A stretch of 32,000 bases of DNA. Origin: Corynebacterium amycolatum (GTDB lineage: Bacteria > Actinomycetota > Actinomycetes > Mycobacteriales > Mycobacteriaceae). Position 1 is the stretch's first letter; each line of letters begins with the position of its first letter. The stretch lies in NCBI RefSeq assembly GCF_049243625.1, contig NZ_CP046975.1. One strand, given 5' to 3'. Position numbers and translations under genes: made by a program. The notes below the pieces were generated by a model. That model made no database searches. It had not been told where the DNA came from and saw only the letters and a list, made by a program, of their open reading frames with translations. Below, in pieces: positions 3,496 through 32,000 of the stretch.

Positions 3496-4539
3496 CTACT
3501 TCTTCGCAATCATTCGGGCTGCGGAGTTGACCACGAAGGTCAGCAAGAACAGCACCAAACCTGCGGACATGTAAGCGCCGGCCTTGAGGTTGTCATTGAA
3601 CTCCGGTGCCGCATTAGCAATTGCGGTTGCGAAGGTGGTACCACCGTCGAAAAGCGAGCCACGGAATGCCGAGGACGGGGAGATTACGAGGTACAGAGCC
3701 ATCGTCTCACCGAGGGCGCGTCCCAGACCCAGCATCGAGCCGGAGATAAAGCCAGAACGACCGAATGGCAGAATGGCCAGCTTGACCATCTCCCAACGGG
3801 TCGCACCGAGAGCCAGCGATGCCTCAATGTGACCACGCGGGGTCTGAACAAAGACCTCACGGGTGGTAGCCGCGATAACCGGCAGAATCATAATTGCTAG
3901 CACAATGCCACCGGTGAAGAGGTTTCGACCGGTCTCGAAGGCCGGTGAGTTTGGGTACAGGGCAAACATCGGGATAAAGCCCAGTGTCTTAGCCAACCAC
4001 CCGTACAGACCAGCCAATGCCGGACCGAGAGCCATAAAGCCCCACAGACCGTAAACAATCGACGGCACTGCGGCCAGCAAATCCACGAGGTATCCCAGCG
4101 GCTTAACCATCTTCTTTGGAGCATAGGCAGTCAGGAAGATGGCAATACCCAGCGCAACCGGCATCGCCAGAATCAGCGCCAGGATGGAAACCGCGACGGT
4201 CACCAGAAACATGTTCGGAATACCGAAGTACATGGCGGAGGTATCCGCCAGGTTCCATCGTTCGGTGTAGGTGAAAAAGTTCGCTTCGTTACGGGACATT
4301 GCCGGAACTGCGCGCAGGAGTAGGAACACTGCAATTGCGATGATGGCAGCAGTCACCAATGCGGAAGATCCTACCGCCAGAATCTTGAAGATTCGGTCAC
4401 CAGGACGAACAACGCCGGACTGAATGGCTTGCTCTTCCGAGCTCTCGTCGCCGGAGGAATCCACCTGCGGTGCTGAGGACTGCAACAGACTGCTGTCTAC
4501 AGCCTCCTGCTTCCCTTCAATGGGAGTCGAGGAACTCAT
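3496..4539 (-). CDS. pstC: phosphate ABC transporter permease PstC
   Basis: Multi-pass permease with the loop ..EASLALGATRWEMVKLAILP... It follows pstS, in the canonical pstSCAB order. Confidence 0.93.
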   Translation of the reverse strand: MSSSTPIEGKQEAVDSSLLQSSAPQVDSSGDESSEEQAIQSGVVRPGDRIFKILAVGSSALVTAAIIAIAVFLLLRAVPAMSRNEANFFTYTERWNLADTSAMYFGIPNMFLVTVAVSILALILAMPVALGIAIFLTAYAPKKMVKPLGYLVDLLAAVPSIVYGLWGFMALGPALAGLYGWLAKTLGFIPMFALYPNSPAFETGRNLFTGGIVLAIMILPVIAATTREVFVQTPRGHIEASLALGATRWEMVKLAILPFGRSGFISGSMLGLGRALGETMALYLVISPSSAFRGSLFDGGTTFATAIANAAPEFNDNLKAGAYMSAGLVLFLLTFVVNSAARMIAKK

Positions 4540-4716
4540 GATCTCATTTCCTAAGTAGAAGTGATTTGTGCTTCAACGCACATGAAGACCGATTGGCCTC
4601 AATACCCCTCTACGAGCGGTACCCAATCAACTGAGGTGTCGATGTATAAAGCCAACCGGTCTACGTCAGGTTTTCGGCCTACAGCTCAAATCTGCGTGGC
4701 CGGCTGAAGTAATCCT

Positions 4717-4772
4717 CGCGCCAACCGGGTAACAACAGAGCCAACTCTGCTTTCACCCGCGTTGCGCGCAAC
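4717..4772 (-). promoter_or_regulatory. structured RNA element in the pstS-pstC spacer (candidate partial terminator or mRNA stabiliser)
   Basis: A perfect 12-bp palindrome GTTGCGCGCAAC (4761-4772) starts 4 nt after the pstS stop. The outer imperfect stem pairs ACCCGCGTTGCGCG (4755-4768) with CGCGCCAACCGGGT (4717-4730). It encloses an inner hairpin CAGAGccaaCTCTG (4736-4749). No U-tract follows. The spacer is 236 bp. Confidence 0.45.
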
Positions 4773-4775
4773 GAA

Positions 4776-5873
4776 TTACTTGATAGCGTCAACCGCTGCG
4801 GACAACTTGTCCTTGAACTCACCCTGAACCGGGATGTAACCCAGCTCTTCGAGCTCTGGGCCCTGGCCCTCTTCCAGAACAACCTTCAGGAAGTTCTTAA
4901 CCAAGTCACGAGTCTCCTCGTCGTAACCAGCGGAGCAGACGATTTCGTAGGTGGTCAGAACCAGCGGGTAAGCGCCTTCCTCATCCATTGCGAACAGAGC
5001 GTCGGTGTCAACAACCATGTCGTGACCCTCAGTCTTGAACGTGACGGAATCCAGAGCCTTACCGACGGTGTCGTTGTTCAGCTCAACCGGGCCATGGCCG
5101 AAGTCCATCTTGGCGATGCCCAGACCCTTGTCCTCCGCGAAGCCAGACTCAACGTAGGTGATAGCACCGTCGATATTGGAAACCTCGTTGACAACACCAG
5201 CCGAGCCGTTAGCGCCCTGACCAGTAGCAGTAGGGAAGGACTTGGAAGCCTCGTGCTTCCACTGCTCCGGAGCAGCAGCGCTCAGGAACTTCATGAAGTT
5301 ATCAGTAGTACCGGACTCCTCAGAGCGGTAGACAACCTTGATGTCCTTCTCCGGCAGCTTCGCGTCCTTGTTGACCTCAGCAATCTTCGGGTCGTTCCAC
5401 TTGGTGATCTTGCCGTCGAAGATTTCAGCAACCAGTGCCGGGGTCAGAGTGACATCAACGCCCTCGAGGTTGTAGGCAACGGCAACCGGACCGATAACCA
5501 TCGGCAGGTGCCATGCATCGTTACCATCGCAGCGCTTCTTAGCCTCTGCAACCTGGTCCTTGCCGTCCTTCTCCTTCAGCGGAGAGTCGGAGCCAGCGAA
5601 AGCAACGGTGCCAGCAATGAACTGAGTCTGACCGGAACCAGAGCCAGATGCGTTGTACGACAGAGTCGAGCCGGTCTCTTCAAACTTGGTGGCAAATAGG
5701 TCCATAGCGCGCTGCTGCGAGGTAGCGCCCTCACCCTGCAGCTCACCAGTGACGTCAGCCAAACCCTCAACGTTAGAAGCGCCTTCGCCGCCCTCTTCAG
5801 AGCAAGCGGCCAGGGTGAGACTTGCAATAGCGGCCAGACCAATGACGGATGCCGCACGATTCTTCTTCAGCAC
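4776..5873 (-). CDS. pstS: phosphate-binding lipoprotein PstS
   Basis: PBP-fold PstS sequence (..SGSGSGQTQF..AFAGSDSPL..). GTG at 5873 lies 7 nt downstream of GGAGGA. The signal peptide ends in the lipobox LTLAAC. The track ORF start at 6008 adds 45 non-signal residues and is unlikely. Confidence 0.93.
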   Translation of the reverse strand: MLKKNRAASVIGLAAIASLTLAACSEEGGEGASNVEGLADVTGELQGEGATSQQRAMDLFATKFEETGSTLSYNASGSGSGQTQFIAGTVAFAGSDSPLKEKDGKDQVAEAKKRCDGNDAWHLPMVIGPVAVAYNLEGVDVTLTPALVAEIFDGKITKWNDPKIAEVNKDAKLPEKDIKVVYRSEESGTTDNFMKFLSAAAPEQWKHEASKSFPTATGQGANGSAGVVNEVSNIDGAITYVESGFAEDKGLGIAKMDFGHGPVELNNDTVGKALDSVTFKTEGHDMVVDTDALFAMDEEGAYPLVLTTYEIVCSAGYDEETRDLVKNFLKVVLEEGQGPELEELGYIPVQGEFKDKLSAAVDAIK

Positions 5874-6221
5874 AGTAAATCCTCCGGGTTTACACAATGA
5901 GTGAAACAGTTCTCGTGGAACCGCCACACTCCGGTCCACTGCGCTGAACCTATCTACCGATAGTAACCGGAACCTGTTCAAAACATTAACAATCGGTGAA
6001 CGGCGCAAGTAATTCTTTATTTATCCTCATTTTCCCTGTAAGAAGCCCTAAAATGCGCCCCTGAAACACTGAGGATTGGACAACATCTCCCCAAAATCAC
6101 AAGTATCATTGCCCCCGCCACAGAGGAAAACCACCTAAAACTGAGACAAACCTAAGCTCGCCCTCTCCAATAACTCAGCCCTTCCCCAACAACTCGCCTC
6201 CAATAAACCGAACCGTCACAT

Positions 6222-7130
6222 TTACGCGCCGTACATCACATCACGGCGAGCCACTTCAAAGCCGACCGCACGGTAAGTGCGCACTGCCGGAGCATTGTCG
6301 CCTTCGACATAGAGAATTACCTTTTCCGCTCCCCGGCTCCGGAGATGGGAAAGCCCAACATTGGTCAACCATCGCCCCAGACCGCGTCCGCGCGCCTTCG
6401 AGCTCAGTCCAATCACATAGACCTCACCAGTTGGCACAGACTCCTCAGCGTGCCACTTCGTCCAGTGGAAACCACAAATCTCCTCCGCACTGTCGCGCGC
6501 CCCGGCCACATCCGCAGCAAAGAACACGCCCTCCGGGTCGAACCACTGCACATCCCGAGCGCGATCGAGTTGTGGCTGTGACCAACCCCCCTGCTCCGGA
6601 TGCCAATCAAACGCCTCGTTATTCACTGCCAACCACGCTCGATCTACCGCTGCCGCGCCCCACTTCGCACGTGCCGCAGTCAGGGTCAAGGCTTCAACAT
6701 CATCACGCTTATCGACGTCCCCCGCCGCCTTCTCCAACGCTGAGCCCGAAACGGACATCTGCAACAGCTCGCGGACAACCTTGCGTCCCGTCAACTCTGC
6801 CAAGCGGCTGGCACCGGCGACATCACCGTGAGCCCAGATAGGCAGACGCTCACCGACTTCAGCATCGATGTGCGCAAGCAGCTTCGCTCCCACGCCTTGC
6901 CTGCGAAACTCCGGATCAACAACCATCTCCATAGCATCTGGCGCAACGGCTGCCAGGCCCAAATAACGGTCGTTCTCGATAATCGCAAAGTGTCGATGCC
7001 CGAAAGAGTCGTCGTCAAGCCCTCGGACGAAAGCCTCGCCGAACGCCTCCACGCCGTCGGTGGAGTGGGCGCGCTGCAGTAGCGTACTGGCGGCGGTGGT
7101 GTCTACGTCAAGCAGTTCGGTTACGTTCAT
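6222..7130 (-). CDS. mshD: mycothiol synthase (mycothiol acetyltransferase), tandem GNAT
   Basis: Two GNAT repeats (..VDPEFRRQGVGAKLL.. and ..LSSKARGRGLGRWL..) in a protein of about 302 aa starting at ATG 7130 (MNVTELLDVD..). The longer 540-aa track ORF overlaps the divergent gene and has no homology-like features. Confidence 0.85.
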   Translation of the reverse strand: MNVTELLDVDTTAASTLLQRAHSTDGVEAFGEAFVRGLDDDSFGHRHFAIIENDRYLGLAAVAPDAMEMVVDPEFRRQGVGAKLLAHIDAEVGERLPIWAHGDVAGASRLAELTGRKVVRELLQMSVSGSALEKAAGDVDKRDDVEALTLTAARAKWGAAAVDRAWLAVNNEAFDWHPEQGGWSQPQLDRARDVQWFDPEGVFFAADVAGARDSAEEICGFHWTKWHAEESVPTGEVYVIGLSSKARGRGLGRWLTNVGLSHLRSRGAEKVILYVEGDNAPAVRTYRAVGFEVARRDVMYGA

Positions 7131-7211
7131 ACGCCCCACCCTATACACAGCCGCGGATTCAACACTTCCCCGATGTCCGCTGGGCCAAAAGCGATGGGGT
7201 ACTAATAGAGT

Positions 7212-23550: not shown

Positions 23551-24873
23551 ATGGCAGCTCAGGCCAACAATAACTCTCTGCGCCGCGCGGTCGTCGTCGG
23601 CGGTAACCGCATTCCGTTCGCTCGTTCTAATAAGGAATACGCTAACGAGTCGAACCAGGACATGCTGACCGCTGCAATCGACGGTCTCGTCGCCCGCTTC
23701 GGTATCGGCGGCGAACGCCTCGGTGCAGTCTCCGCCGGCGCTGTGCTGAAGCACTCCCGTGACTTTAACCTCACCCGTGAGTGTGTCCTCGGCTCCGCAC
23801 TGGCGCCGGACACCCCGGCTTTCGACATTCAGATGGCATGTGCCACCGGCATGGAGGCCCTCAACTCTGTCTCCAACATGATTAAGCTGGGCCAGATTGA
23901 CTCCGCTATCGCCGGCGGTGTGGACACCACCTCCGACGCTCCGATTGCTGTCAACGACCGTCTGCGCAAGATCCTGCTGGAGGCCAGCCGCCAGAAGTCC
24001 ACTCTGGACATGGCAAAGGTCTTCCTGAAGACCCGTCCGTCCGACCTGGCTCCGGATACTCCGTCGACCGGCGAGCCCCGCACTGGCCTGTCCATGGGTG
24101 AACACCAGGCCATCACCACCGCCAAGTGGGGCGTTACCCGAGCTGAGCAGGATGAGCTCGCCGCCGCTTCCCACCAAAACATGGCAAACGCTTACGACGA
24201 GGGCTTCTTCACTGACCTCGTCACCCCGTACAAGGGCGTTTCCCGTGACACCAACATGCGCCCGGACTCCACCCCGGAGAAGCTGGCCAAGCTCAAGCCG
24301 GTCTTCGGCCGCGGCCTGGAAGCAGAGCCGACCATGACCGCCGGTAACTCCACTCCGCTTACCGACGGCGCCTCTGCCGTCCTCGTCTCCACCCCGGAGT
24401 GGGCCGCTGAGCGCGGTCTGCCGGTGCTTGCCGACGTCGTCGATTCCGAGGCAGCCGCAGTTGACTTTGTCCACGGCGACGAGGGTCTGCTGATGGCTCC
24501 GGCTTACGCCACCCCGCGCCTGCTGGCCCGCAACGGCTGGACCTTCGACGACTTCGACTTCTTCGAGATCCACGAGGCTTTCGCCGGCACCGTCCTGTCC
24601 ACCATGAAGGCATGGGAGGACGAGGAGTTCTGCCGCACCAAGCTTGGACTGGAAGGCCCGCTGGGCTCCATCCCGCGCGAGAAGCTCAACGTCAAGGGCT
24701 CTTCCCTGGCAGCCGGCCACCCATTCGCCGCTACCGGCGGCCGCATTGTGGCAGCCCTCGCCAAGATGCTGCGCCAGAAGGCAGACGAGACCGGCAAGAC
24801 CACTCGCGGCCTGATCTCCGTCTGTGCCGCGGGCGGCCAGGGTGTTGTCGCAGTTCTCGAGGCTCGCGTCTAA
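23551..24873 (+). CDS. acetyl-CoA C-acyltransferase (thiolase), FadA2-like
   Basis: Thiolase motifs: active-site Cys context QMACATGMEA, NSTPLTDGASA, GHPFAATGGR, and C-terminal CAAGGQG. 440 aa. Ribosome-binding site GAAGGGA. Confidence 0.9.
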   Translation: MAAQANNNSLRRAVVVGGNRIPFARSNKEYANESNQDMLTAAIDGLVARFGIGGERLGAVSAGAVLKHSRDFNLTRECVLGSALAPDTPAFDIQMACATGMEALNSVSNMIKLGQIDSAIAGGVDTTSDAPIAVNDRLRKILLEASRQKSTLDMAKVFLKTRPSDLAPDTPSTGEPRTGLSMGEHQAITTAKWGVTRAEQDELAAASHQNMANAYDEGFFTDLVTPYKGVSRDTNMRPDSTPEKLAKLKPVFGRGLEAEPTMTAGNSTPLTDGASAVLVSTPEWAAERGLPVLADVVDSEAAAVDFVHGDEGLLMAPAYATPRLLARNGWTFDDFDFFEIHEAFAGTVLSTMKAWEDEEFCRTKLGLEGPLGSIPREKLNVKGSSLAAGHPFAATGGRIVAALAKMLRQKADETGKTTRGLISVCAAGGQGVVAVLEARV

Positions 24874-24920
24874 AAGCGCACCACCGATAAAGACACTTTT
24901 ACTTTCAAGGAGAATTTTCC

Positions 24921-26279
24921 ATGACCGATAAGTACCAGGAACTCGTCAACGGTGGTCCGCTCACTGGACTGGCTAAAGCAGCTGGCCTGCCACAGCCACC
25001 GTTCCTGCGCCGCCACAAGCCGGGCGGTCCGCTGCTGAACAACGACAAGGTGCTCGTCACCGGCGAGGGTGCAGATGCAGACGCAGTTGCAGCTCAGCTG
25101 ACAGAGTGGGGCCTGCAAGTTCGTCGTGGCAACGCCGCTGACGACAAGATTGGTGCCATTGTCCTCGTCGCCACCGAGGCTAAGCGCCCGTCAGAGCTGC
25201 AGGGCCCAGTGCTCGCTGCTGCAAAGCACATGCGCAAGCTGGACAAGGGTGGCCGCATCGTCACCGTCTCCCGCGCCAAGGATGCTCACCACAACGCAAC
25301 TCCGGCCGAGATTGCTGAGAACGCTGTCGCCGGTGGTATCGAGGGCCTGATTCGCTCCCTCGGCCACGAGGTTCGTGGCGGCTCCACCGCTAACGGCATC
25401 CTCGTTGCTCCGGGTGTCTCGGTCACCGCCCCGTCCGTGATTTCCTCCCTGCACTTCTTCCTCTCCGGCCGCTCGGCCTTCATCGACGGCCAGTTCCTCC
25501 GCGTCTCCTCCGACGCTGGTGAGATCCCAGCTGACTGGGATAAGCCGCTGGCTGGCAAGGTTGCCGCTGTCACCGGTTCCGCCCGTGGTATCGGTGCCGC
25601 TATCGCTCGTCAGCTCAAGGCTGACGGCGCAGAGGTCATCGTCATCGACGTTCCGCAGGCTGGCGAGGCGCTGTCCAAGGTTGCCAACGAGCTCGGTGGC
25701 CTGGCTCTGCAGCAGGACATCACTGCCGACGACGCCGGCAACGCCATTGCCGATGCTGCTGTGGCCCGCTACGGCCGCCTGGACATCGTCATCCACAACG
25801 CAGGTATCACCCGCGACAAGATGTTCGCCAACATGGACGACGCCAAGTGGGGCTCGGTCATCGCCGTCAACATCGAGGCTCAGCTGAAGATGAACGAGCA
25901 GCTGCTGAACCACAAGGCCTTCGAGAAGGCTCCGCGTATTGCCACCATGGCTTCCACCTCCGGTATCGCAGGTAACCGCGGTCAGACCAACTACGCCACC
26001 TCCAAGGCCGGTGTTATCGCAATGGTCGAGGCTTACGCTGAGGAGTTCGCTAAGCGCGGCGGCAACATCAACGCTGTTGCTCCGGGCTTCATCGAGACCG
26101 ACATGACCGCTGCTATTCCGTTCGTCAACCGCCAGGTTGCTCGACGCGTGAACTCGCTGCAGCAGGGCGGCCAGCCGGGCGATGTCGCCCAGGCAATCGC
26201 CTTCCTGGTCTCCGACCGCGCGCTCGGTGTCAATGGCCACGTCCTGCGCGTCTGTGGTCAGAACATCGTCGGCGCCTAA
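24921..26279 (+). CDS. high-molecular-weight 3-oxoacyl-thioester reductase, FabG4-like (N-terminal non-catalytic domain plus SDR)
   Basis: The C-terminal SDR carries TGSARGIGAAIA, NAGIT and the S...YATSKAG catalytic set. About 200 extra N-terminal residues, as in FabG4. Ribosome-binding site AAGGAG. Confidence 0.85.
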   Translation: MTDKYQELVNGGPLTGLAKAAGLPQPPFLRRHKPGGPLLNNDKVLVTGEGADADAVAAQLTEWGLQVRRGNAADDKIGAIVLVATEAKRPSELQGPVLAAAKHMRKLDKGGRIVTVSRAKDAHHNATPAEIAENAVAGGIEGLIRSLGHEVRGGSTANGILVAPGVSVTAPSVISSLHFFLSGRSAFIDGQFLRVSSDAGEIPADWDKPLAGKVAAVTGSARGIGAAIARQLKADGAEVIVIDVPQAGEALSKVANELGGLALQQDITADDAGNAIADAAVARYGRLDIVIHNAGITRDKMFANMDDAKWGSVIAVNIEAQLKMNEQLLNHKAFEKAPRIATMASTSGIAGNRGQTNYATSKAGVIAMVEAYAEEFAKRGGNINAVAPGFIETDMTAAIPFVNRQVARRVNSLQQGGQPGDVAQAIAFLVSDRALGVNGHVLRVCGQNIVGA

Positions 26280-26332
26280 GCGAAGTCGTGACTTCCGCAT
26301 AGGCTCCCGATAAGGAGGAAAGAGGAAAACTT

Positions 26333-27295
26333 ATGGCTAAGACCCTGGACGCCATTCCCAATCTGGTTCCGCTCTACGCCAAGGCAGCTGCTGGTTCGGC
26401 AAAGAAGCGCCCGAACTCCACCGAAATCAAGGTCGATGAACTAGTGGTCAAGGGTGTCACTGTCGATGCCGACCGCGACCAGGACTTCCGCGACGTCGTT
26501 GGCGCCCCGAAGTCTGAGCAAGCGTTCTTCGGCCACATCCACGCCCTAATCATGCCCATTCAGATGGAGCTGATGGCTGGGGACGATTTCCCGCTGCCGA
26601 TGATGGGCCTGGTCCACACCGAGAACACCTACCGCGAAATCTCGCCTGTCACACTCGGCGGCAAGGTTGATATCGCGGTGAAGGTTGCCGCATTCCGCGC
26701 TCACCGCTCGGGCACTGAGGTTGTTCTGGAGTCGACTGTTGCATCGTCCACATCCGGCGCCACCTTGGTCGAGGAGCAATCGGTGTACCTGGCCAAGGGC
26801 GTTCGCCTGAAGGACGCCGAGGGCTTCGAAGAGGTCCAGGCACAGCGTGAGGCCATCAAGTCCGGCGCCGAGACCATCAAGCGTGAGCAGTTTAAGGTCC
26901 CCTTCCCCACCGCTCAGTGGAAGCTGGCTGGCAACACCGGCCGCAAGTGGGCCAAGGTTTCCGGTGACTGGAACCCGATTCACATCACCTCTGTCTCCGC
27001 GAAGGCTCTGGGCATGCCAGCAGCGATTGCACACGGCATGTACACCGCCTCCCGCGCGCTGGCTGAGGCACAGGTTCTGCCGGGTCAGTCGTACGAGTTC
27101 CAGATTTCCTTCGGTGCGCCGGTCGTTCTGCCGACCACCATCAATGTCGCACTCACCCACACCGGTGACGGTGCAGGTGCTGCTCACAACCTGACTGAGG
27201 GCAGCTCCAACATCGGCCGTGCAGTCAACATTGTCGCGTGGGATCGCAAGAAGAAGCGTCCGCACTTCACCGGAAGTGTTCGTCCGCTGAAGTAG
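26333..27295 (+). CDS. MaoC-like (R)-specific hydratase/dehydratase, double hotdog, HtdX-like
   Basis: Hydratase-2 motif VSGDWNPIHITSVSAKALG in the C-terminal hotdog, plus a degenerate N-terminal hotdog. Ribosome-binding site AAGGAGGA. Confidence 0.8.
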   Translation: MAKTLDAIPNLVPLYAKAAAGSAKKRPNSTEIKVDELVVKGVTVDADRDQDFRDVVGAPKSEQAFFGHIHALIMPIQMELMAGDDFPLPMMGLVHTENTYREISPVTLGGKVDIAVKVAAFRAHRSGTEVVLESTVASSTSGATLVEEQSVYLAKGVRLKDAEGFEEVQAQREAIKSGAETIKREQFKVPFPTAQWKLAGNTGRKWAKVSGDWNPIHITSVSAKALGMPAAIAHGMYTASRALAEAQVLPGQSYEFQISFGAPVVLPTTINVALTHTGDGAGAAHNLTEGSSNIGRAVNIVAWDRKKKRPHFTGSVRPLK

Positions 27296-27313: not shown

Positions 27314-27385
27314 AAAACCGCCGCGCTTTGGAAAACCAGTCTCCTCATCGACTGGGCCTTTCCAAAGCGCGGCGGTTTTGTTTCC
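27314..27385. terminator. strong intrinsic terminator after the htdX-like gene
   Basis: Perfect 21-bp stem AAAACCGCCGCGCTTTGGAAA (27314-27334) pairs with TTTCCAAAGCGCGGCGGTTTT (27359-27379). The stem encloses an inner CCAGT/ACTGG hairpin. A T-rich tail GTTT follows. Confidence 0.88.
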
Positions 27386-27590
27386 CTGTTGTGCTTTTGC
27401 CCAGGGCACGACTGGAGCCCCCTCCGAGAGACACCGCCTCCTCCCTCTCTCCCCCCCCCGGCCGGCAACCCCGCCACTTTCCCGCCTTGAAGATCAGCTG
27501 CTGGGTTTTTCCGCCGTTAATGCAGAGTCGCGGCTTTACTTCGCAATTGCGTGACTAAGCACTTTTCAACCGCATGTAGGCAACGCCTTG

Positions 27591-27637
27591 TTGACACCCC
27601 ATTCACTCCTCTATTTTATGTTCAATCCATTGAACAT
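27591..27637 (+). promoter_or_regulatory. candidate nrdI-nrdF promoter with overlapping palindromic operator
   Basis: Perfect TTGACA (27591-27596). TATTTT, which fits TAnnnT (27612-17), follows after a 15-nt spacer. Then a perfect 9-2-9 palindrome ATGTTCAATccATTGAACAT (27618-27637) directly abuts the AGGAGG ribosome-binding site (27638-43). Confidence 0.5.
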
Positions 27638-27650
27638 AGGAGGTAATCGA

Positions 27651-28115
27651 GTGTCTTCATCATCGAAGACGCCGCTGACTTTCACGGAACTCCCACCGGA
27701 GGAGTCACCCCGAATCGTGTACTTCTCCAGTGCTTCTGAAAACACTCACCGGTTCGTCCAAAAGCTGGCTCAACCAGCAGCACGCATCCCGTTACATCCG
27801 CGAAAAGACGGAATGATTCGCGTTTGCAGCCCATTTGTCCTGATCACACCGACTTATGGTGGCGGATGTCGGCGCCGCGCGGTACCTAAGCAAGTCATCG
27901 CTTTTCTCAACGACGAAACCAACAGGAGTTTCATCCGCGGTGTCATCACCTCGGGCAACACAAATTTCGGCACCGACTTTTGCATAGCCGGAGCCATCAT
28001 TTCTGCAAAATGCCAGGTTCCGGAGCTATACCACTACGAGCTACTGGGGACAGACCACGATGTGGAAAACGTCAAAGAGGGCCTGGAAAAATTCTGGAGG
28101 AGCGCTACTTCTTGA
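27651..28115 (+). CDS. nrdI: flavodoxin-like ribonucleotide reductase activase NrdI
   Basis: [18 protein letters not shown].., ..LITPTYGGG.., ..[11 protein letters not shown]... GTG 27651 lies 7 nt after AGGAGG. The track start at 27588 is the TTG of the -35 region and is rejected. Confidence 0.9.
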
Positions 28116-29116
28116 ACATCTACAGCTATTCAACTACGCCACCGTCTTTTCGAAAGGACCCAGCTGCCCGCCTTCGGCCGATCAACTGGAACCGAGTGCA
28201 AGATGACAAAGATCTCGAAGTGTGGAATCGCCTAACAGCAAATTTTTGGCTGCCCGAAAAAGTTCCGCTGTCCAATGACCTTGCAGACTGGCGACGTCTC
28301 ACCGATCTAGAACGCGAGCTGACCATGAAGGTCTTCACCGGACTGACCATGCTCGACACAGTCCAGGCGTCTGTCGGGGAGATTTCCCAAATTCAAGATG
28401 CCCGCACCGAACATGAAGAGGCCGTCTACACGAATATCGCTTTCATGCAAGCAGTGCATGCAAAGTCTTATTCTTCAGTATTTTCTACGCTATCCAATAC
28501 CCCTGACATCGACGCTGCCTACCAATGGGCAGTCGCCAATGACATCCTGCAGGCTCGGTCAAAAGCTGTGCTCAAACACTATTACGGCGACGTTCCACTC
28601 AAGCGAAAGGCGGCAGCAACGCTTCTTTCGTCCTTCTCGCTCTACGCCGGCTTCTACCTCCCGCTGCACTTCGCATCACGTGGCATCCTGACCAATACCG
28701 CCGACATGGTGCGCCTGATTCTGCGTGACAAAGCTGTTCACGGCTATTACTCCGGCTACAAATTCCAGCGAGGCGTAGAAACCTACGACACCGCCACGCA
28801 AACGCAGATGAAGGCTTTCGTCTTCGAACTTCTCGATGATCTATACCAGCTCGAACTGAGGTACTCCGAAGCCCTATACCAACCACTCGGGCTCTACGAC
28901 GACGTTGCCAACTTCATTCGATACAACGCCAACAAAGCGCTCATGAACTTGGGATACCCGCAGCGGTTTAACCATGAAGAGACCGCCTTCAAGCCCGAAA
29001 TTCTCGCCGCCCTCACCCCGGGGTCAGATGAAAACCACGACTTTTTCTCCGGTTCCGGCTCCGCATATGTCATCGGAAAAGCCGAAGACACCGCAGATGA
29101 AGACTGGGATTTCTAA
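28112..29116 (+). CDS. nrdF: class I ribonucleotide reductase beta subunit NrdF with the Gln/Ser/Lys (QSK) metal-site substitutions (class Ie-type)
   Basis: Full-length NrdF homology ([34 protein letters not shown] ... [14 protein letters not shown] ... DEDWDF). The TTG start overlaps the nrdI TGA (TTGA), and GGAGGAG lies about 10 nt upstream. Metal-site positions are D82, Q113 (CAA 28448-50), H116, Y120, S173 (TCG 28628-30), K207 (AAA 28730-32) and H210. Confidence 0.88.
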
Positions 29117-29158
29117 ATCCACGTCTTTCCCCATACATCCTAAGAAAGGAACATTCGC

Positions 29159-29734
29159 ATGACTGCACAGATTTCTATCCTGGTAGGAAGCTTGCGTCGA
29201 GCCTCCTATGCACGAAAGATTGCACTCAAGGCAGCCACGTACTTCCCCGATGACTTCAAAGTCGACATCGTCGAGATTCGTGACCTCCCTCTCTACAACT
29301 TCGACTACGACGACCCCGCAGTGTCCGATATTGCGACTCCCGCGGAATACACCAGTTTCCGGGAAACCATTAAAGCCAGCGATGGCATCCTATTTGTCAC
29401 CCCAGAAAACAACCGCACAATTCCTGCAGCTCTGAAGAATGCCGTTGACATCGGATCTAAGCCCAACGGTGATGTGGCATGGAAGAACCTGCCCGCGGGA
29501 ATTATCAGCCACTCCGTCGGCCGTATGGGAGGTTATAGCTCTCAGAAGAACTTGCGACTCGCGCTGTCGTACTTCGACATGCCGATGCTCGGTCAGCCAG
29601 AGGTCTTCCTGGGACAATCGCCAACACTCATTGACGAACAAGGAGAATTCACGTCGTCAAGCACTGAGGACTTTGTTCGCGACTACATCAACAGATTTGC
29701 AGACCTAGTTCGAGAGCAGAGCCCACGCCACTAA
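29159..29734 (+). CDS. NAD(P)H-dependent FMN reductase (flavodoxin-like fold, YieF/ChrR/SsuE family)
   Basis: ISILVGSLRRASYARK.. phosphate-binding loop, GILFVTPENNRTIPAALKNAVD, and ..GIISHSVGRMGG... ATG follows AAAGGA. It starts 42 nt downstream of nrdF on the same strand. Confidence 0.8.
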   Translation: MTAQISILVGSLRRASYARKIALKAATYFPDDFKVDIVEIRDLPLYNFDYDDPAVSDIATPAEYTSFRETIKASDGILFVTPENNRTIPAALKNAVDIGSKPNGDVAWKNLPAGIISHSVGRMGGYSSQKNLRLALSYFDMPMLGQPEVFLGQSPTLIDEQGEFTSSSTEDFVRDYINRFADLVREQSPRH

Positions 29735-29854
29735 CTGAAATCCCCTAATCAGCGCAGCGTTACTGGGGATATCGCCGTATGAAGATTCTTCACTGACTAG
29801 GATCAAACGCTGCGTTCTCTGCACGGCTAAGCGCTCGTCGTTAGGCTCATTTTC

Positions 29855-30552: not shown

Positions 30553-32000
30553 TTACTTACGGGTCAACGCGATTGTCGCGCCGATGACCAAGACTAGAAG
30601 CACTGTCCCCATAGAGAACCACATCATCTTCGAGGAGCCGTCATCCTCGTTTTCTTCGGTGGTCTTCGGATTCTGCTGGCTACTAGTCGGGGTTTCGCTA
30701 CTTGGCGACTTGTGCGCGACCTGTTCAAAAGCTGGGCCCGGGATCTTCTCGCCGACCAACTCCGTGGTCAGCTGGTAAGTCACCGGGACGTTTTGAACAT
30801 CCGCGACATCGTGGGATTTACCGGCGCCCCAACTGTTGTTGAAGAAGACAACGATGTACTGGTCACCATCCAGCCACGCTCTTTCAGCCTCGTAATCGCC
30901 CGACTTTTCGCCATCTTCGCCGATCCGATTGCGGTAGTTAATCCGGGCCGAGTTACCAAATGTTGTCTCTTCGCCAATCTGGTGTTCATTTACCGGACGG
31001 CTTTCCTCGCTACCGGCGAGCTGGCGTGCCGAATTCAGCGTCTTGATATCCAGGCCGGAGATTTGTGCAAGCTTGTCCGCTTCTGGGGCGTCAATGAGTT
31101 TGACGGCGCCGCGGAGCTGCTGCCCATACTCGGACTTGATCTTGTACACGTGCGTCTCACCAGGAACAATGTCGGCCGTGACGCTGCTGATGTTGTCGGC
31201 AGTAAGTTCCGTGGCGTCATCGAACCACGAACCTGGGGTGACCTTCTTAGCCTGATCTGCTTCCGGCGTCGCGGGCGGAGGGTTCAAGCTCTCCTTGTCG
31301 GACGGGAACGCCTCCGGCACATCAGTCAGGTTTTCGTTGGCGAAACGCTTGATGATCACTTCTGCAGGAATGTCCTGACCTTCGAAGGGGCCTCCTTTTC
31401 GGGCCACGGAGAACACCATATTGCCCGACTTACAGTCCCCCTCCGCTCCTCCGGGCTGCTTGGTTGTTATCGATGCGAAAAAGGGGCCATTGGAGTCGAT
31501 GATGCCATTGCCGAAATCATTGGCAAGGAAGCAACTGCTGTCGTCCAAATGCATAGTGAGCGCGAAGTTGCGGATATCTAGGTCCATCAAAGTCGCGCCT
31601 GACGACGCTCCCGGCAACGTGGCCGCACTAATTGCAAGCCGCTCTCCCTCAGCGACCGGGACGGAGAAGTACTCAGCACCGTCGCCTTCCTGATTACTGA
31701 TGCTGCGCTCGGACTCAGGAGTCTTTTCCCGCAGCTTGGTCGAGAACGTTTCCACGTCGGCAGGCACCTGGGTAGCGCTCGTAGGAGCGTCGCCGCCCTG
31801 TATCTCTTGCGCGCTGGACTGCGCGGTGCGTGCGGTGCGGGTCGCCAGCGTCTTCATGGACTCAGCCAGCGAATCGGAGTCCTGGGCGTCTAGGTACTCG
31901 CCGCCTGTGGCCTCAGCAATGCACTCAAGTTCAGCACGTGCGCCCGCATCAACGAGGAAACCAACTGTGTTGATGACCAGATCAATGCCCTGCTGCTTGA
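30553..32000 (-). CDS. VWA-domain protein with C-terminal TM anchor (N-terminus outside the window)
   Basis: The reading frame stays open upstream of the track Met to the window edge. It reads ..KQQGIDLVINTVGFLVDAGARAELECIAEATGGEYLDAQDSDSLAESMKT.., typical of the end of a von Willebrand A domain. The C-terminus has an S/T/P-rich linker and the TM segment MMWFSMGTVLLVLVIGATIAL. Confidence 0.6.
   Translation of the reverse strand, partial: KQQGIDLVINTVGFLVDAGARAELECIAEATGGEYLDAQDSDSLAESMKTLATRTARTAQSSAQEIQGGDAPTSATQVPADVETFSTKLREKTPESERSISNQEGDGAEYFSVPVAEGERLAISAATLPGASSGATLMDLDIRNFALTMHLDDSSCFLANDFGNGIIDSNGPFFASITTKQPGGAEGDCKSGNMVFSVARKGGPFEGQDIPAEVIIKRFANENLTDVPEAFPSDKESLNPPPATPEADQAKKVTPGSWFDDATELTADNISSVTADIVPGETHVYKIKSEYGQQLRGAVKLIDAPEADKLAQISGLDIKTLNSARQLAGSEESRPVNEHQIGEETTFGNSARINYRNRIGEDGEKSGDYEAERAWLDGDQYIVVFFNNSWGAGKSHDVADVQNVPVTYQLTTELVGEKIPGPAFEQVAHKSPSSETPTSSQQNPKTTEENEDDGSSKMMWFSMGTVLLVLVIGATIALTRK

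Follow-up and report, generated by a model that had tools for sequence, protein, structure and literature searches.

Within a 32-kb stretch of the Corynebacterium amycolatum genome (hereafter the window), positions 27651-29734 encode, entirely on the + strand, a ribonucleotide reductase (RNR) activase, NrdI, an RNR small (beta) subunit, NrdF, of the "QSK" type, in which Gln, Ser and Lys replace three metal-ligand Glu residues, and an NAD(P)H-dependent flavin mononucleotide (FMN) reductase. We found that orthologs of this reductase gene follow nrdF in 32 of 77 actinobacterial QSK loci and in none of 64 canonical class Ib loci. Our preferred reading, to which we assign a probability of roughly 0.45, is that the three genes constitute a horizontally acquired operon for a metal-independent, manganese-regulated radical backup, whose reductase would most likely feed NrdI. 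This reading draws on the gene identities, the QSK status of NrdF, the operon-like layout, the QSK-specific linkage and an operator-like palindrome, all read from the sequence.

The first gene, nrdI (27651-28115, +), has a GTG start preceded at 7 nucleotides (nt) by an AGGAGG ribosome-binding site (27638-27643) and encodes a flavodoxin-like activase of 154 residues. Its product scores above the curated cut-offs of both NrdI family models, PF07972 (E = 2.8e-45; 153.8 bits, cut-off 27) and TIGR00333 (153.1 bits, cut-off 74.65). The TTG start of the second gene, nrdF (28112-29116, +; 334 residues), overlaps the TGA stop of nrdI by 4 nt in the sequence TTGA (28112-28115). This overlap, and the presence of a same-strand FMN reductase 42 nt past nrdF, had been pointed out in an initial annotation made from the sequence alone, and both are confirmed here. 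The intervening spacer (29117-29158, +) carries the ribosome-binding site GAAAGGAA at 29144-29151, 7-8 nt before the ATG of the reductase gene (29159-29734, +; 191 residues). The same three genes, encoding 154, 334 and 191 residues, appear in the public gene calls of six other assemblies with an identical NrdF.

The reductase belongs to PF03358 (102.2 bits, cut-off 24; profile positions 3-150 of 152) and is of the ChrR/YieF/FerB/PA1204 type: its relatives among solved structures are 1rtt, 3u7r, 3svl and 3s2y, with E-values of 1e-18 to 1e-23 (PA1204, the FerB-like 3u7r, YieF and ChrR). The N-terminal motif GSLRRASYARK is present, and the product is predicted to bind FMN and to act as an NAD(P)H-dependent reductase. 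An identity as ArsH was rejected (TIGR02690, 22.8 bits against a cut-off of 292).

NrdF has the R2/ferritin-like small-subunit fold of the class Ib lineage (PF00268, E = 1.5e-81, 274 bits; NCBIfam class-1b beta models above cut-off). When it is aligned with the canonical R2F proteins of C. ammoniagenes and mycobacteria, Q113, S174 and K207 stand opposite the three metal-ligand Glu residues; the K207 position reads RDKAVHG in place of the canonical RDEAVHG, and another substituted Glu lies in the canonical LLESFLFYSGF. The Asp D82, the His residues H116 and H210 and the radical-site Tyr Y120 (HAKSY) are kept. The closest solved structures, 8RAG and 8RAH (E = 1.3e-147), are the tyrosine and 3,4-dihydroxyphenylalanine (DOPA) forms of the Bifidobacterium (Gardnerella) vaginale R2e-QSK. 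Ser and Lys occupy their positions in all 120 best NrdF homologs, and Gln is found in 69 of 69 among those in which the pattern for the Gln position matched (69 of the 120). With nrdI immediately upstream as the partner gene of a class Ie system, NrdF is, on its sequence features, a class Ie QSK beta subunit and is predicted to be metal-free. The C-terminal tail for docking to the alpha subunit, already recognized in the initial annotation, is retained as ...DEDWDF and aligns with the canonical ...DDDWDF.

Within the window, Pfam scans of 27 open reading frames (ORFs) detected no RNR large-subunit or glutaredoxin domain, a tblastn search with the NrdE of a related locus yielded nothing better than E = 1.2, and the NrdH motif C[VMI]QC had no match in any frame, all of which agrees with the earlier statement that nrdI and nrdF are present and that nrdE and nrdH are absent from the 32 kb. 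The accompanying proposal that this orphan nrdIF pair borrows a remote NrdE was right and had already been published. Among GTDB species genomes, 275 QSK nrdF genes have been counted, including 106 in nrdIEF, 104 in nrdIF and 17 in nrdHIEF arrangements; genomes without nrdE in the QSK stretch carry it elsewhere, and the authors concluded that a QSK beta can pair with an R1 that also serves the normal Mn-dependent beta (PMC11846895, published in 2025). Because C. amycolatum, together with the species of strain SK46, is listed as "F, HIE, IF" in the supplementary table of that study, the window NrdF presumably pairs with the NrdE of an nrdHIE operon elsewhere in the genome. The QSK class and the nrdIF arrangement are both on record, so the orphan layout is not new.

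What appears to be new is the linkage to the reductase. We located homologs of NrdI, NrdE, NrdF and the reductase in 80 species-representative QSK loci, 77 of which had at least 900 nt downstream of nrdF and could be evaluated, and compared them with 80 canonical (Glu-bearing) actinobacterial class Ib nrdF loci from metagenomes, 64 of them evaluable. A reductase ortholog (64-77% identity) was found on the same strand within 500 nt downstream of nrdF in 32/77 QSK loci and 0/64 canonical loci (Fisher p ~1e-10, for loci that are not phylogenetically independent and a control set that differs taxonomically from the QSK set); two control loci have a distant family member (39-41% identity) several kb away. 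These counts rule out chance adjacency of the reductase and nrdF and, as genome comparisons, support a functional association of the reductase with the QSK RNR. The conserved linkage to nrdI-nrdF, on which the initial annotation had staked its proposal, is thus present.

The linked loci come from at least nine genera (Corynebacterium, Brevibacterium, Leucobacter, Gulosibacter, Agrococcus, Brachybacterium, Winkia, Specibacter and an Actinomycetaceae metagenome-assembled genome, MAG), and a reductase after nrdIEF was seen in three further genera, Auritidibacter, Microbacterium and Pseudarthrobacter. The spacers are 2-50 nt long in the C. amycolatum group, Brevibacterium, Agrococcus, Brachybacterium, Winkia, Specibacter and the Actinomycetaceae MAG, and ~300 nt long in 13 Corynebacterium species (minutissimum, tuberculostearicum, aurimucosum and others), Leucobacter and Gulosibacter. 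In four more loci (Helcobacillus, Pseudoglutamicibacter, B. ravenspurgense and Actinotignum), the gene is found upstream or in the vicinity. Overall, the reductase is commoner after a complete nrdIEF (27/50) than after nrdIF (4/22). The pairwise identities of the reductase and NrdF are correlated (rho = 0.72), which adds little, both following the species tree.

A conserved neighbour need not be a functional partner: the reductase might be a passenger that was fixed beside nrdF in an ancestral mobile cassette and then inherited or co-transferred. Many of the positives are close kin (13 Corynebacterium and 6 Brevibacterium species), the gene is absent from most nrdIF-type loci, and its loss in the SK46 lineage had no visible effect on nrdIF. 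However, the order nrdF-(orfX)-reductase, in which orfX denotes a small ORF present at many of the loci, is conserved across several families, in at least 9-12 genera, amid differing surroundings, and the reductase is as conserved as NrdI (mean pairwise identity 0.78 versus 0.77). Given, in addition, its absence from the canonical loci and the presence of a shared operator on an unlinked copy of the gene (see below), we consider a passenger origin very unlikely.

The product of orfX is conserved and ~85-100 residues long, has no Pfam match and is annotated as a "hypothetical protein" everywhere; its motif is WLE(T/A)IALF(E/Q)A(I/V)REGNQPAA..RLL ... HRAGPPPAFG. The ORF is absent from the window. 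In 13 Corynebacterium species, Leucobacter, Gulosibacter, Micrococcus and Pseudarthrobacter, orfX is placed between nrdF, whose 3' end it overlaps, and the reductase gene; it is transcribed divergently from nrdI in Brevibacterium and Agrococcus, and from the unlinked reductase gene in Pseudonocardia (examples, by survey locus: L064:10911-11255, L175:6001-6309 and L014:10920-11273 on the + strand; L053:6882-7094 and L090:4619-4858 on the - strand). Its product is possibly an additional accessory of the QSK system.

The layout of the window cassette is that of an operon. A hairpin followed by a U-rich tract (27314-27380, +; AAAACCGCCGCGCTTTGG...CCAAAGCGCGGCGGTTTTGTTTCC) has a folding energy of -59.7 kcal/mol (z = -9.15; 0 of 200 shuffles as stable) and is probably the intrinsic terminator of the upstream MaoC-like gene, insulating the nrdI promoter; possibly it acts in both directions. 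An Rfam element at this hairpin was rejected, the only matches being sub-threshold ones to plant microRNAs. The non-coding stretch of 350 nt between the hairpin and the nrdI promoter includes a C-rich, pyrimidine-rich tract at 27425-27470 (CCTCCTCCCTCTCTCCCCCCCCCGGCCGGCAACCCCGCC). We read the promoter-like elements at 27591-27619 (+) as a putative promoter: TTGACA at 27591-27596 is followed by TATTTT at 27612-27617 (15-nt spacer) or TTTTAT at 27614-27619 (17-nt spacer). These elements were picked out by eye, and a consensus scanner, bound by its spacing and position-2 rules, made no call. The initial annotation had named a terminator between nrdF and the reductase as an outcome that would separate the two genes. 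The terminator scan gave none on the + strand of this spacer, which lacks a T-run and is not significantly structured (z = -1.0); the only strong terminator precedes the nrdI promoter.

The G+C content is 0.51-0.55 over exactly nrdI, nrdF and the reductase gene (27600-29700), compared to 0.61-0.66 upstream and ~0.58 downstream. Because the three genes share this low G+C content relative to the upstream region, the cassette was probably acquired horizontally. Beyond the C. amycolatum complex, the nearest relatives of NrdF (~78% identity) are from other genera, and the other corynebacterial QSK proteins are 72-75% identical. Taken together, the placement of the terminator, the features of the spacer, the shared low G+C content and the NrdF relatives from other genera suggest that nrdI, nrdF and the reductase gene were acquired together and form a single unit of expression. 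The earlier assignment of the reductase to the nrdIF transcription unit holds as far as sequence can carry it, that is, on the 42-nt spacer, the ribosome-binding site and the low G+C content, from which we infer co-transcription.

A perfect 20-bp palindrome, ATGTTCAATCCATTGAACAT (27618-27637; core TGTTCAA-N4-TTGAACA, 7-4-7), is located between the -10-like element TATTTTAT and the ribosome-binding site, overlapping the nrdI promoter, a position that suits a repressor. Its core has no other match in the window (0.05 expected by chance), and in nine loci of the C. amycolatum complex the half-sites are invariant while the 4-nt spacer varies (TCCA, TTCA, TCGA, TCCC, CCCA). Like an operator of the MntR regulon, it is a conserved palindrome that overlaps a promoter, and it is probably a repressor operator, most likely for a Mn-responsive regulator of the DtxR/MntR family. 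In other genera, a related palindrome, AAGT(T/A)CG-N6-CG(A/T)ACTT, precedes nrdI in 53/73 QSK loci and 0/42 canonical loci, as scored with a matrix from 20 sites and a threshold set by the canonical control loci, a test that is partly circular. A loose regular expression, equally frequent in control and QSK loci, was discarded in favour of the matrix and a positional test. Palindromes of this family, which includes that of the window, sometimes occur in tandem, and are also found before a DtxR-family gene (L020, ~2616-2637) and before an unlinked reductase gene (L090, 4908-4927); sites in L053 and L064 lie at ~7140-7180 and ~7135-7180, respectively. Control of the cassette by NrdR was rejected because no NrdR-box-like site is present upstream of the window nrdI (at best 11/16 positions, compared to 14-15/16 in Micrococcales loci).

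The neighbourhoods of QSK operons likewise involve manganese. In 13 Corynebacterium species, a DtxR-family gene, which matches MntR models best at scores below their cut-offs, lies directly upstream of nrdIEF, and the loci of Brevibacterium and Brachybacterium have nrdI(E)F transcribed divergently from an mntR-like gene and from a ZnuA/ABC-3-type (mntABC-like) transporter. The mntR-like genes beside QSK operons are sometimes two paralogs, and a metal ABC transporter is often divergent from nrdI (L064:6412-7092; L053:2846-3532, 3551-4234 and 4198-6757; L083:6682-9295). Pfam scans, tblastn and motif checks found no DtxR-family regulator or mntR in the window, which also has no metal transporter of this type. 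In C. diphtheriae, nrdI-nrdF2 has been shown by experiment to be repressed by manganese through MntR (PMC13001254, Table 3, after Peng et al. 2021). By virtue of the mntR-like and mntABC-type neighbours, the related palindrome and the MntR-repressed C. diphtheriae genes, the evidence points to the cassette as a manganese-starvation backup RNR, and by analogy MntR probably binds at 27618-27637 and confers Mn-dependent repression. Neither the probable metal-responsive operator nor the manganese-regulon context had figured in the initial annotation.

This context lends itself to another explanation, namely, that the reductase is a co-regulated member of the manganese-starvation response, an NAD(P)H quinone/flavin reductase of general function that, instead of serving NrdI, limits oxidative damage (or reduces metal chelates) when manganese defences such as manganese superoxide dismutase fail, its adjacency to nrdF stemming from the shared operator. 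The position of QSK loci among mntR-like and mntABC-type transporter genes fits this explanation, as does an orthogroup that is often unlinked to nrd genes. The Pseudonocardia ortholog (L090), which is not near nrd genes, carries the palindrome AAGTTCGGCACACCGAACTT in its promoter region, which suggests that it belongs to the same regulon. Similarly, the C. diphtheriae "oxidoreductase" DIP2262, next to sodA and unlinked to nrdI-nrdF2, appears in the same table as MntR/Mn-regulated as strongly as nrdI-nrdF2 (PMC13001254). No annotation of DIP2262 as an ortholog of the reductase was found in the supplement of that paper or in the literature; if it proves to be a PF03358 ortholog, the reductase would be tied experimentally to the same regulon. 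On this explanation, however, it is harder to account for a linked gene that almost always comes directly after nrdF (2-50 nt) or orfX, not beside the transporter or the regulator, that travelled with nrdIF into C. amycolatum as one low-GC cassette, and that never accompanies canonical class Ib operons (0/64), although these may have another regulator. We regard a role confined to the manganese regulon as rather unlikely.

Returning to a reductase that serves NrdI, the sequence data lead us to the following model. The metal-free NrdF-QSK would use a DOPA radical. NrdI, translationally coupled to NrdF, would, with its FMN in the fully reduced state, convert O2 to the oxidant, and the housekeeping nrdHIE operon elsewhere would provide the NrdE onto which NrdF docks. 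The co-transcribed ChrR/YieF-type NAD(P)H:FMN oxidoreductase would be a conserved accessory of actinobacterial QSK-type RNR operons, passing electrons from NAD(P)H to NrdI via its own flavin or via released reduced flavin; NrdI would thereby stay in the hydroquinone form needed to form and re-form the DOPA radical. A Mn-responsive DtxR/MntR-family regulator bound to the palindrome would repress the operon, and scarcity of manganese for the class Ib NrdF would switch it on. Here we infer both the electron transfer from the reductase to NrdI and the identity of the regulator.

Reduction of NrdI by the reductase is plausible, and it would meet an experimental need. The activity of QSK in vitro required chemically reduced NrdI, which the authors had no means to replenish and which they suspected of limiting activity (PMC11846895). 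The sole known NrdI reductase is FNR2 of B. cereus, whose discoverers advised that the search should continue in other bacteria; in the B. cereus system, adding the reductase raised the radical yield threefold. More broadly, and more tentatively, the QSK operons may encode an overlooked electron-supply/maintenance module, consisting of the PF03358 reductase, often together with the ~100-residue orfX product, under MntR, which would serve NrdI and/or the DOPA cofactor. If so, this module would be the missing component behind the weak QSK activity in vitro, with its dependence on chemically reduced NrdI.

A more radical departure is that the reductase, with orfX where present, acts on the DOPA cofactor and not on NrdI, either by supplying reduced flavin for Tyr hydroxylation or by re-reducing an over-oxidised (quinone) or damaged cofactor. 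Such a role would account for a linkage that is confined to QSK and not seen in class Ib, which also needs reduced NrdI. The reductases of two-component flavin monooxygenases are among the members of PF03358, and the window reductase is most closely related to two-electron quinone reductases. The position of orfX, translationally coupled to nrdF and placed between nrdF and the reductase in many loci, also favours action on the cofactor, as do the failure to reproduce DOPA formation in vitro and the dependence of its yield on co-expressed operon proteins. Yet the DOPA site lies deep within beta, where a separate enzyme could hardly be expected to reach it directly; the window lacks orfX; and in E. 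coli the B. vaginale beta obtains its DOPA with neither the reductase nor orfX present. We therefore think it very unlikely that the cofactor is the target.

Several observations weigh against our preferred reading, in which the reductase feeds NrdI under a Mn-responsive regulator. An adjacent reductase is lacking in 45/77 QSK loci, including 18/22 of the nrdIF type, and the gene is absent from all Streptomyces and Kitasatospora QSK loci. Among eight orthologs sampled from the reductase side, three directly follow nrdIEF, one lies at 4 kb from nrdIF (C. otitidis) and four (Cutibacterium equinum, Actinobaculum massiliense, Pseudonocardia and Rothia) are elsewhere, not near nrd genes. The orthogroup, although tight (70-80% identity across actinobacterial orders), is wider than its nrd linkage. 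With no reductase of its own supplied, the B. vaginale QSK system acquired DOPA in E. coli and showed activity in vitro once NrdI had been reduced chemically. Those relatives of the window reductase whose structures are solved reduce quinones, chromate or ferric iron, as would also be expected of a general member of the manganese regulon, and to our knowledge none of them reduces a flavodoxin-like protein. The fold of FNR2 is also a different one, thioredoxin reductase (TrxR)-like with flavin adenine dinucleotide (FAD).

A natural deletion bears on the same question. In C. amycolatum SK46 and in assembly GCA_001837775.1, the reductase gene is cleanly deleted (junction at L004:11005-11080 and in L007; equivalent to ~29160-29835 of the window), and NrdI and NrdF are 99-100% identical to those of the window (99% for the NrdF of SK46). 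The deletion strains keep the nrdF-proximal spacer and the ribosome-binding site up to the position of the start codon, and this retained spacer is fused ~20 nt upstream of the next gene (PF06983-like). Because the reductase is present in more divergent loci of the C. amycolatum complex (L008 and L009), it is ancestral in the complex and was lost in the SK46 lineage; because the clean deletion leaves NrdI and NrdF virtually unchanged, it is not indispensable in cis.

Two further points concern the regulator. The C. amycolatum palindrome scores below the threshold of the matrix for the related palindrome, having CAA/TTG in place of CGG/CCG, so that only the GTTC/GAAC core is common to both. The C. 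glutamicum MntR box, which we take to be TGTTCAATGCGTTGAACA, would have half-sites identical to those of the window palindrome, but we could not confirm this sequence in the literature. On balance, the original suggestion that the reductase is a candidate NrdI reductase stands with respect to a functional association (32/77 versus 0/64), whereas an obligate role is disfavoured by the 45 unlinked loci, the SK46 deletion and the location of about half of the sampled orthologs elsewhere.

In the literature searched, we found no mention of the QSK-specific placement of a PF03358 reductase or of orfX; NrdI together with "FMN reductase" gave no match, and the matches for nrdF with "FMN reductase" were unrelated. 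Manganese and MntR control of nrdI-nrdF2 is already published, whereas the conserved linkage of the reductase is apparently unreported. About 40% of the surveyed species-level QSK loci carry a flavin reductase behind nrdF, compared to none in the control set, which makes the reductase a testable candidate for two stated gaps, the NrdI reductant outside B. cereus and the weak in vitro activity of QSK. The bacteria in question, skin and mucosal corynebacteria, Brevibacterium, Actinomycetaceae and their relatives, face manganese starvation imposed by the host. If our preferred reading is true, a metal-free RNR with its own electron supply under an MntR-type regulator would support DNA synthesis under nutritional immunity. 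Were the reductase no more than a co-regulated antioxidant, the data would still define a conserved manganese-limitation set comprising an mntR-like regulator, an mntABC-type transporter, nrdI(E)F-QSK, orfX and the reductase.

The other large ORFs of the window include pstSCAB-phoU, purM, purF, purC, a prolyl oligopeptidase and a thiolase/short-chain dehydrogenase/MaoC cluster. The latter (23551-27295, +), directly upstream of the cassette, consists of a thiolase, a 452-residue short-chain dehydrogenase with an N-terminal extension of ~210 residues and a MaoC-like hydratase, and looks like a fatty-acid or beta-oxidation-type module unrelated to RNR. Downstream, a 434-residue ORF at 30553-31857 (-) has no Pfam match; at the same position, other C. 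amycolatum assemblies encode a 659-residue protein with a VWA_2 domain, and the ORF is probably the 3' part of a VWA-domain gene whose 5' part runs past the end of the window.

Among known systems, the class Ie QSK RNR of B. vaginale (nrdHIEF; PMC11846895) resembles that of the window in the Q/S/K replacement of three Glu residues, the retained DOPA-forming Tyr and the requirement for NrdI. It differs in gene content, the window having only nrdI and nrdF followed by the PF03358 reductase, and in regulation, as the window lacks NrdR boxes and has a metal-regulator-like palindrome. The neighbourhood analysis in that study took RNR genes only, and no reductase is mentioned. The C. diphtheriae nrdI-nrdF2 unit (DIP1923-DIP1924) is from the same genus and has the same inventory, "F, HIE, IF", with one QSK nrdF. 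As listed in Table 3 of PMC13001254, its MntR-repressed unit comprises two genes with no reductase reported, whereas the window unit has a third gene. The nrdFEI.2 genes of S. pyogenes likewise encode a metal-free class Ie RNR, induced under manganese limitation by the DtxR-family regulator MtsR (PMC6698748). There the residues are VPK and not QSK, the operon has its own nrdE in the order nrdFIE, the host is a Firmicute, and no flavin reductase is reported to accompany the operon.

For the proposed electron transfer, the B. cereus FNR2-NrdI-NrdF system provides the precedent of a dedicated NADPH-dependent flavoenzyme that reduces NrdI and raises the radical yield; FNR2 works at about 100 per minute, compared to about 3 per minute for a non-specific TrxR. 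FNR2 is a TrxR-like FAD enzyme unrelated to PF03358, and it serves a Mn-dependent class Ib beta, unlike the QSK beta of the window; the window reductase, a single-domain flavodoxin-like protein of 191 residues without the two-domain FAD/NADPH fold, lies outside the FNR2 family and could only work like FNR2. An older precedent is Fre, the NAD(P)H:flavin oxidoreductase of E. coli, reportedly identified by Fontecave and co-workers in the late 1980s as part of the radical-introducing system of the class Ia R2, and thus a flavin reductase that supports the generation or regeneration of an RNR beta radical. Fre is from another protein family than the window reductase, works on a di-iron site by way of free reduced flavin and is not linked in an operon to nrd genes. 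The closest kin by sequence are the ChrR, YieF, FerB and PA1204 enzymes, which share the Pfam family of the window reductase. The latter reads PENN where YieF-type enzymes have PEYN, and it differs from all of these enzymes in belonging to a tight actinobacterial orthogroup that is linked specifically to QSK nrdF.

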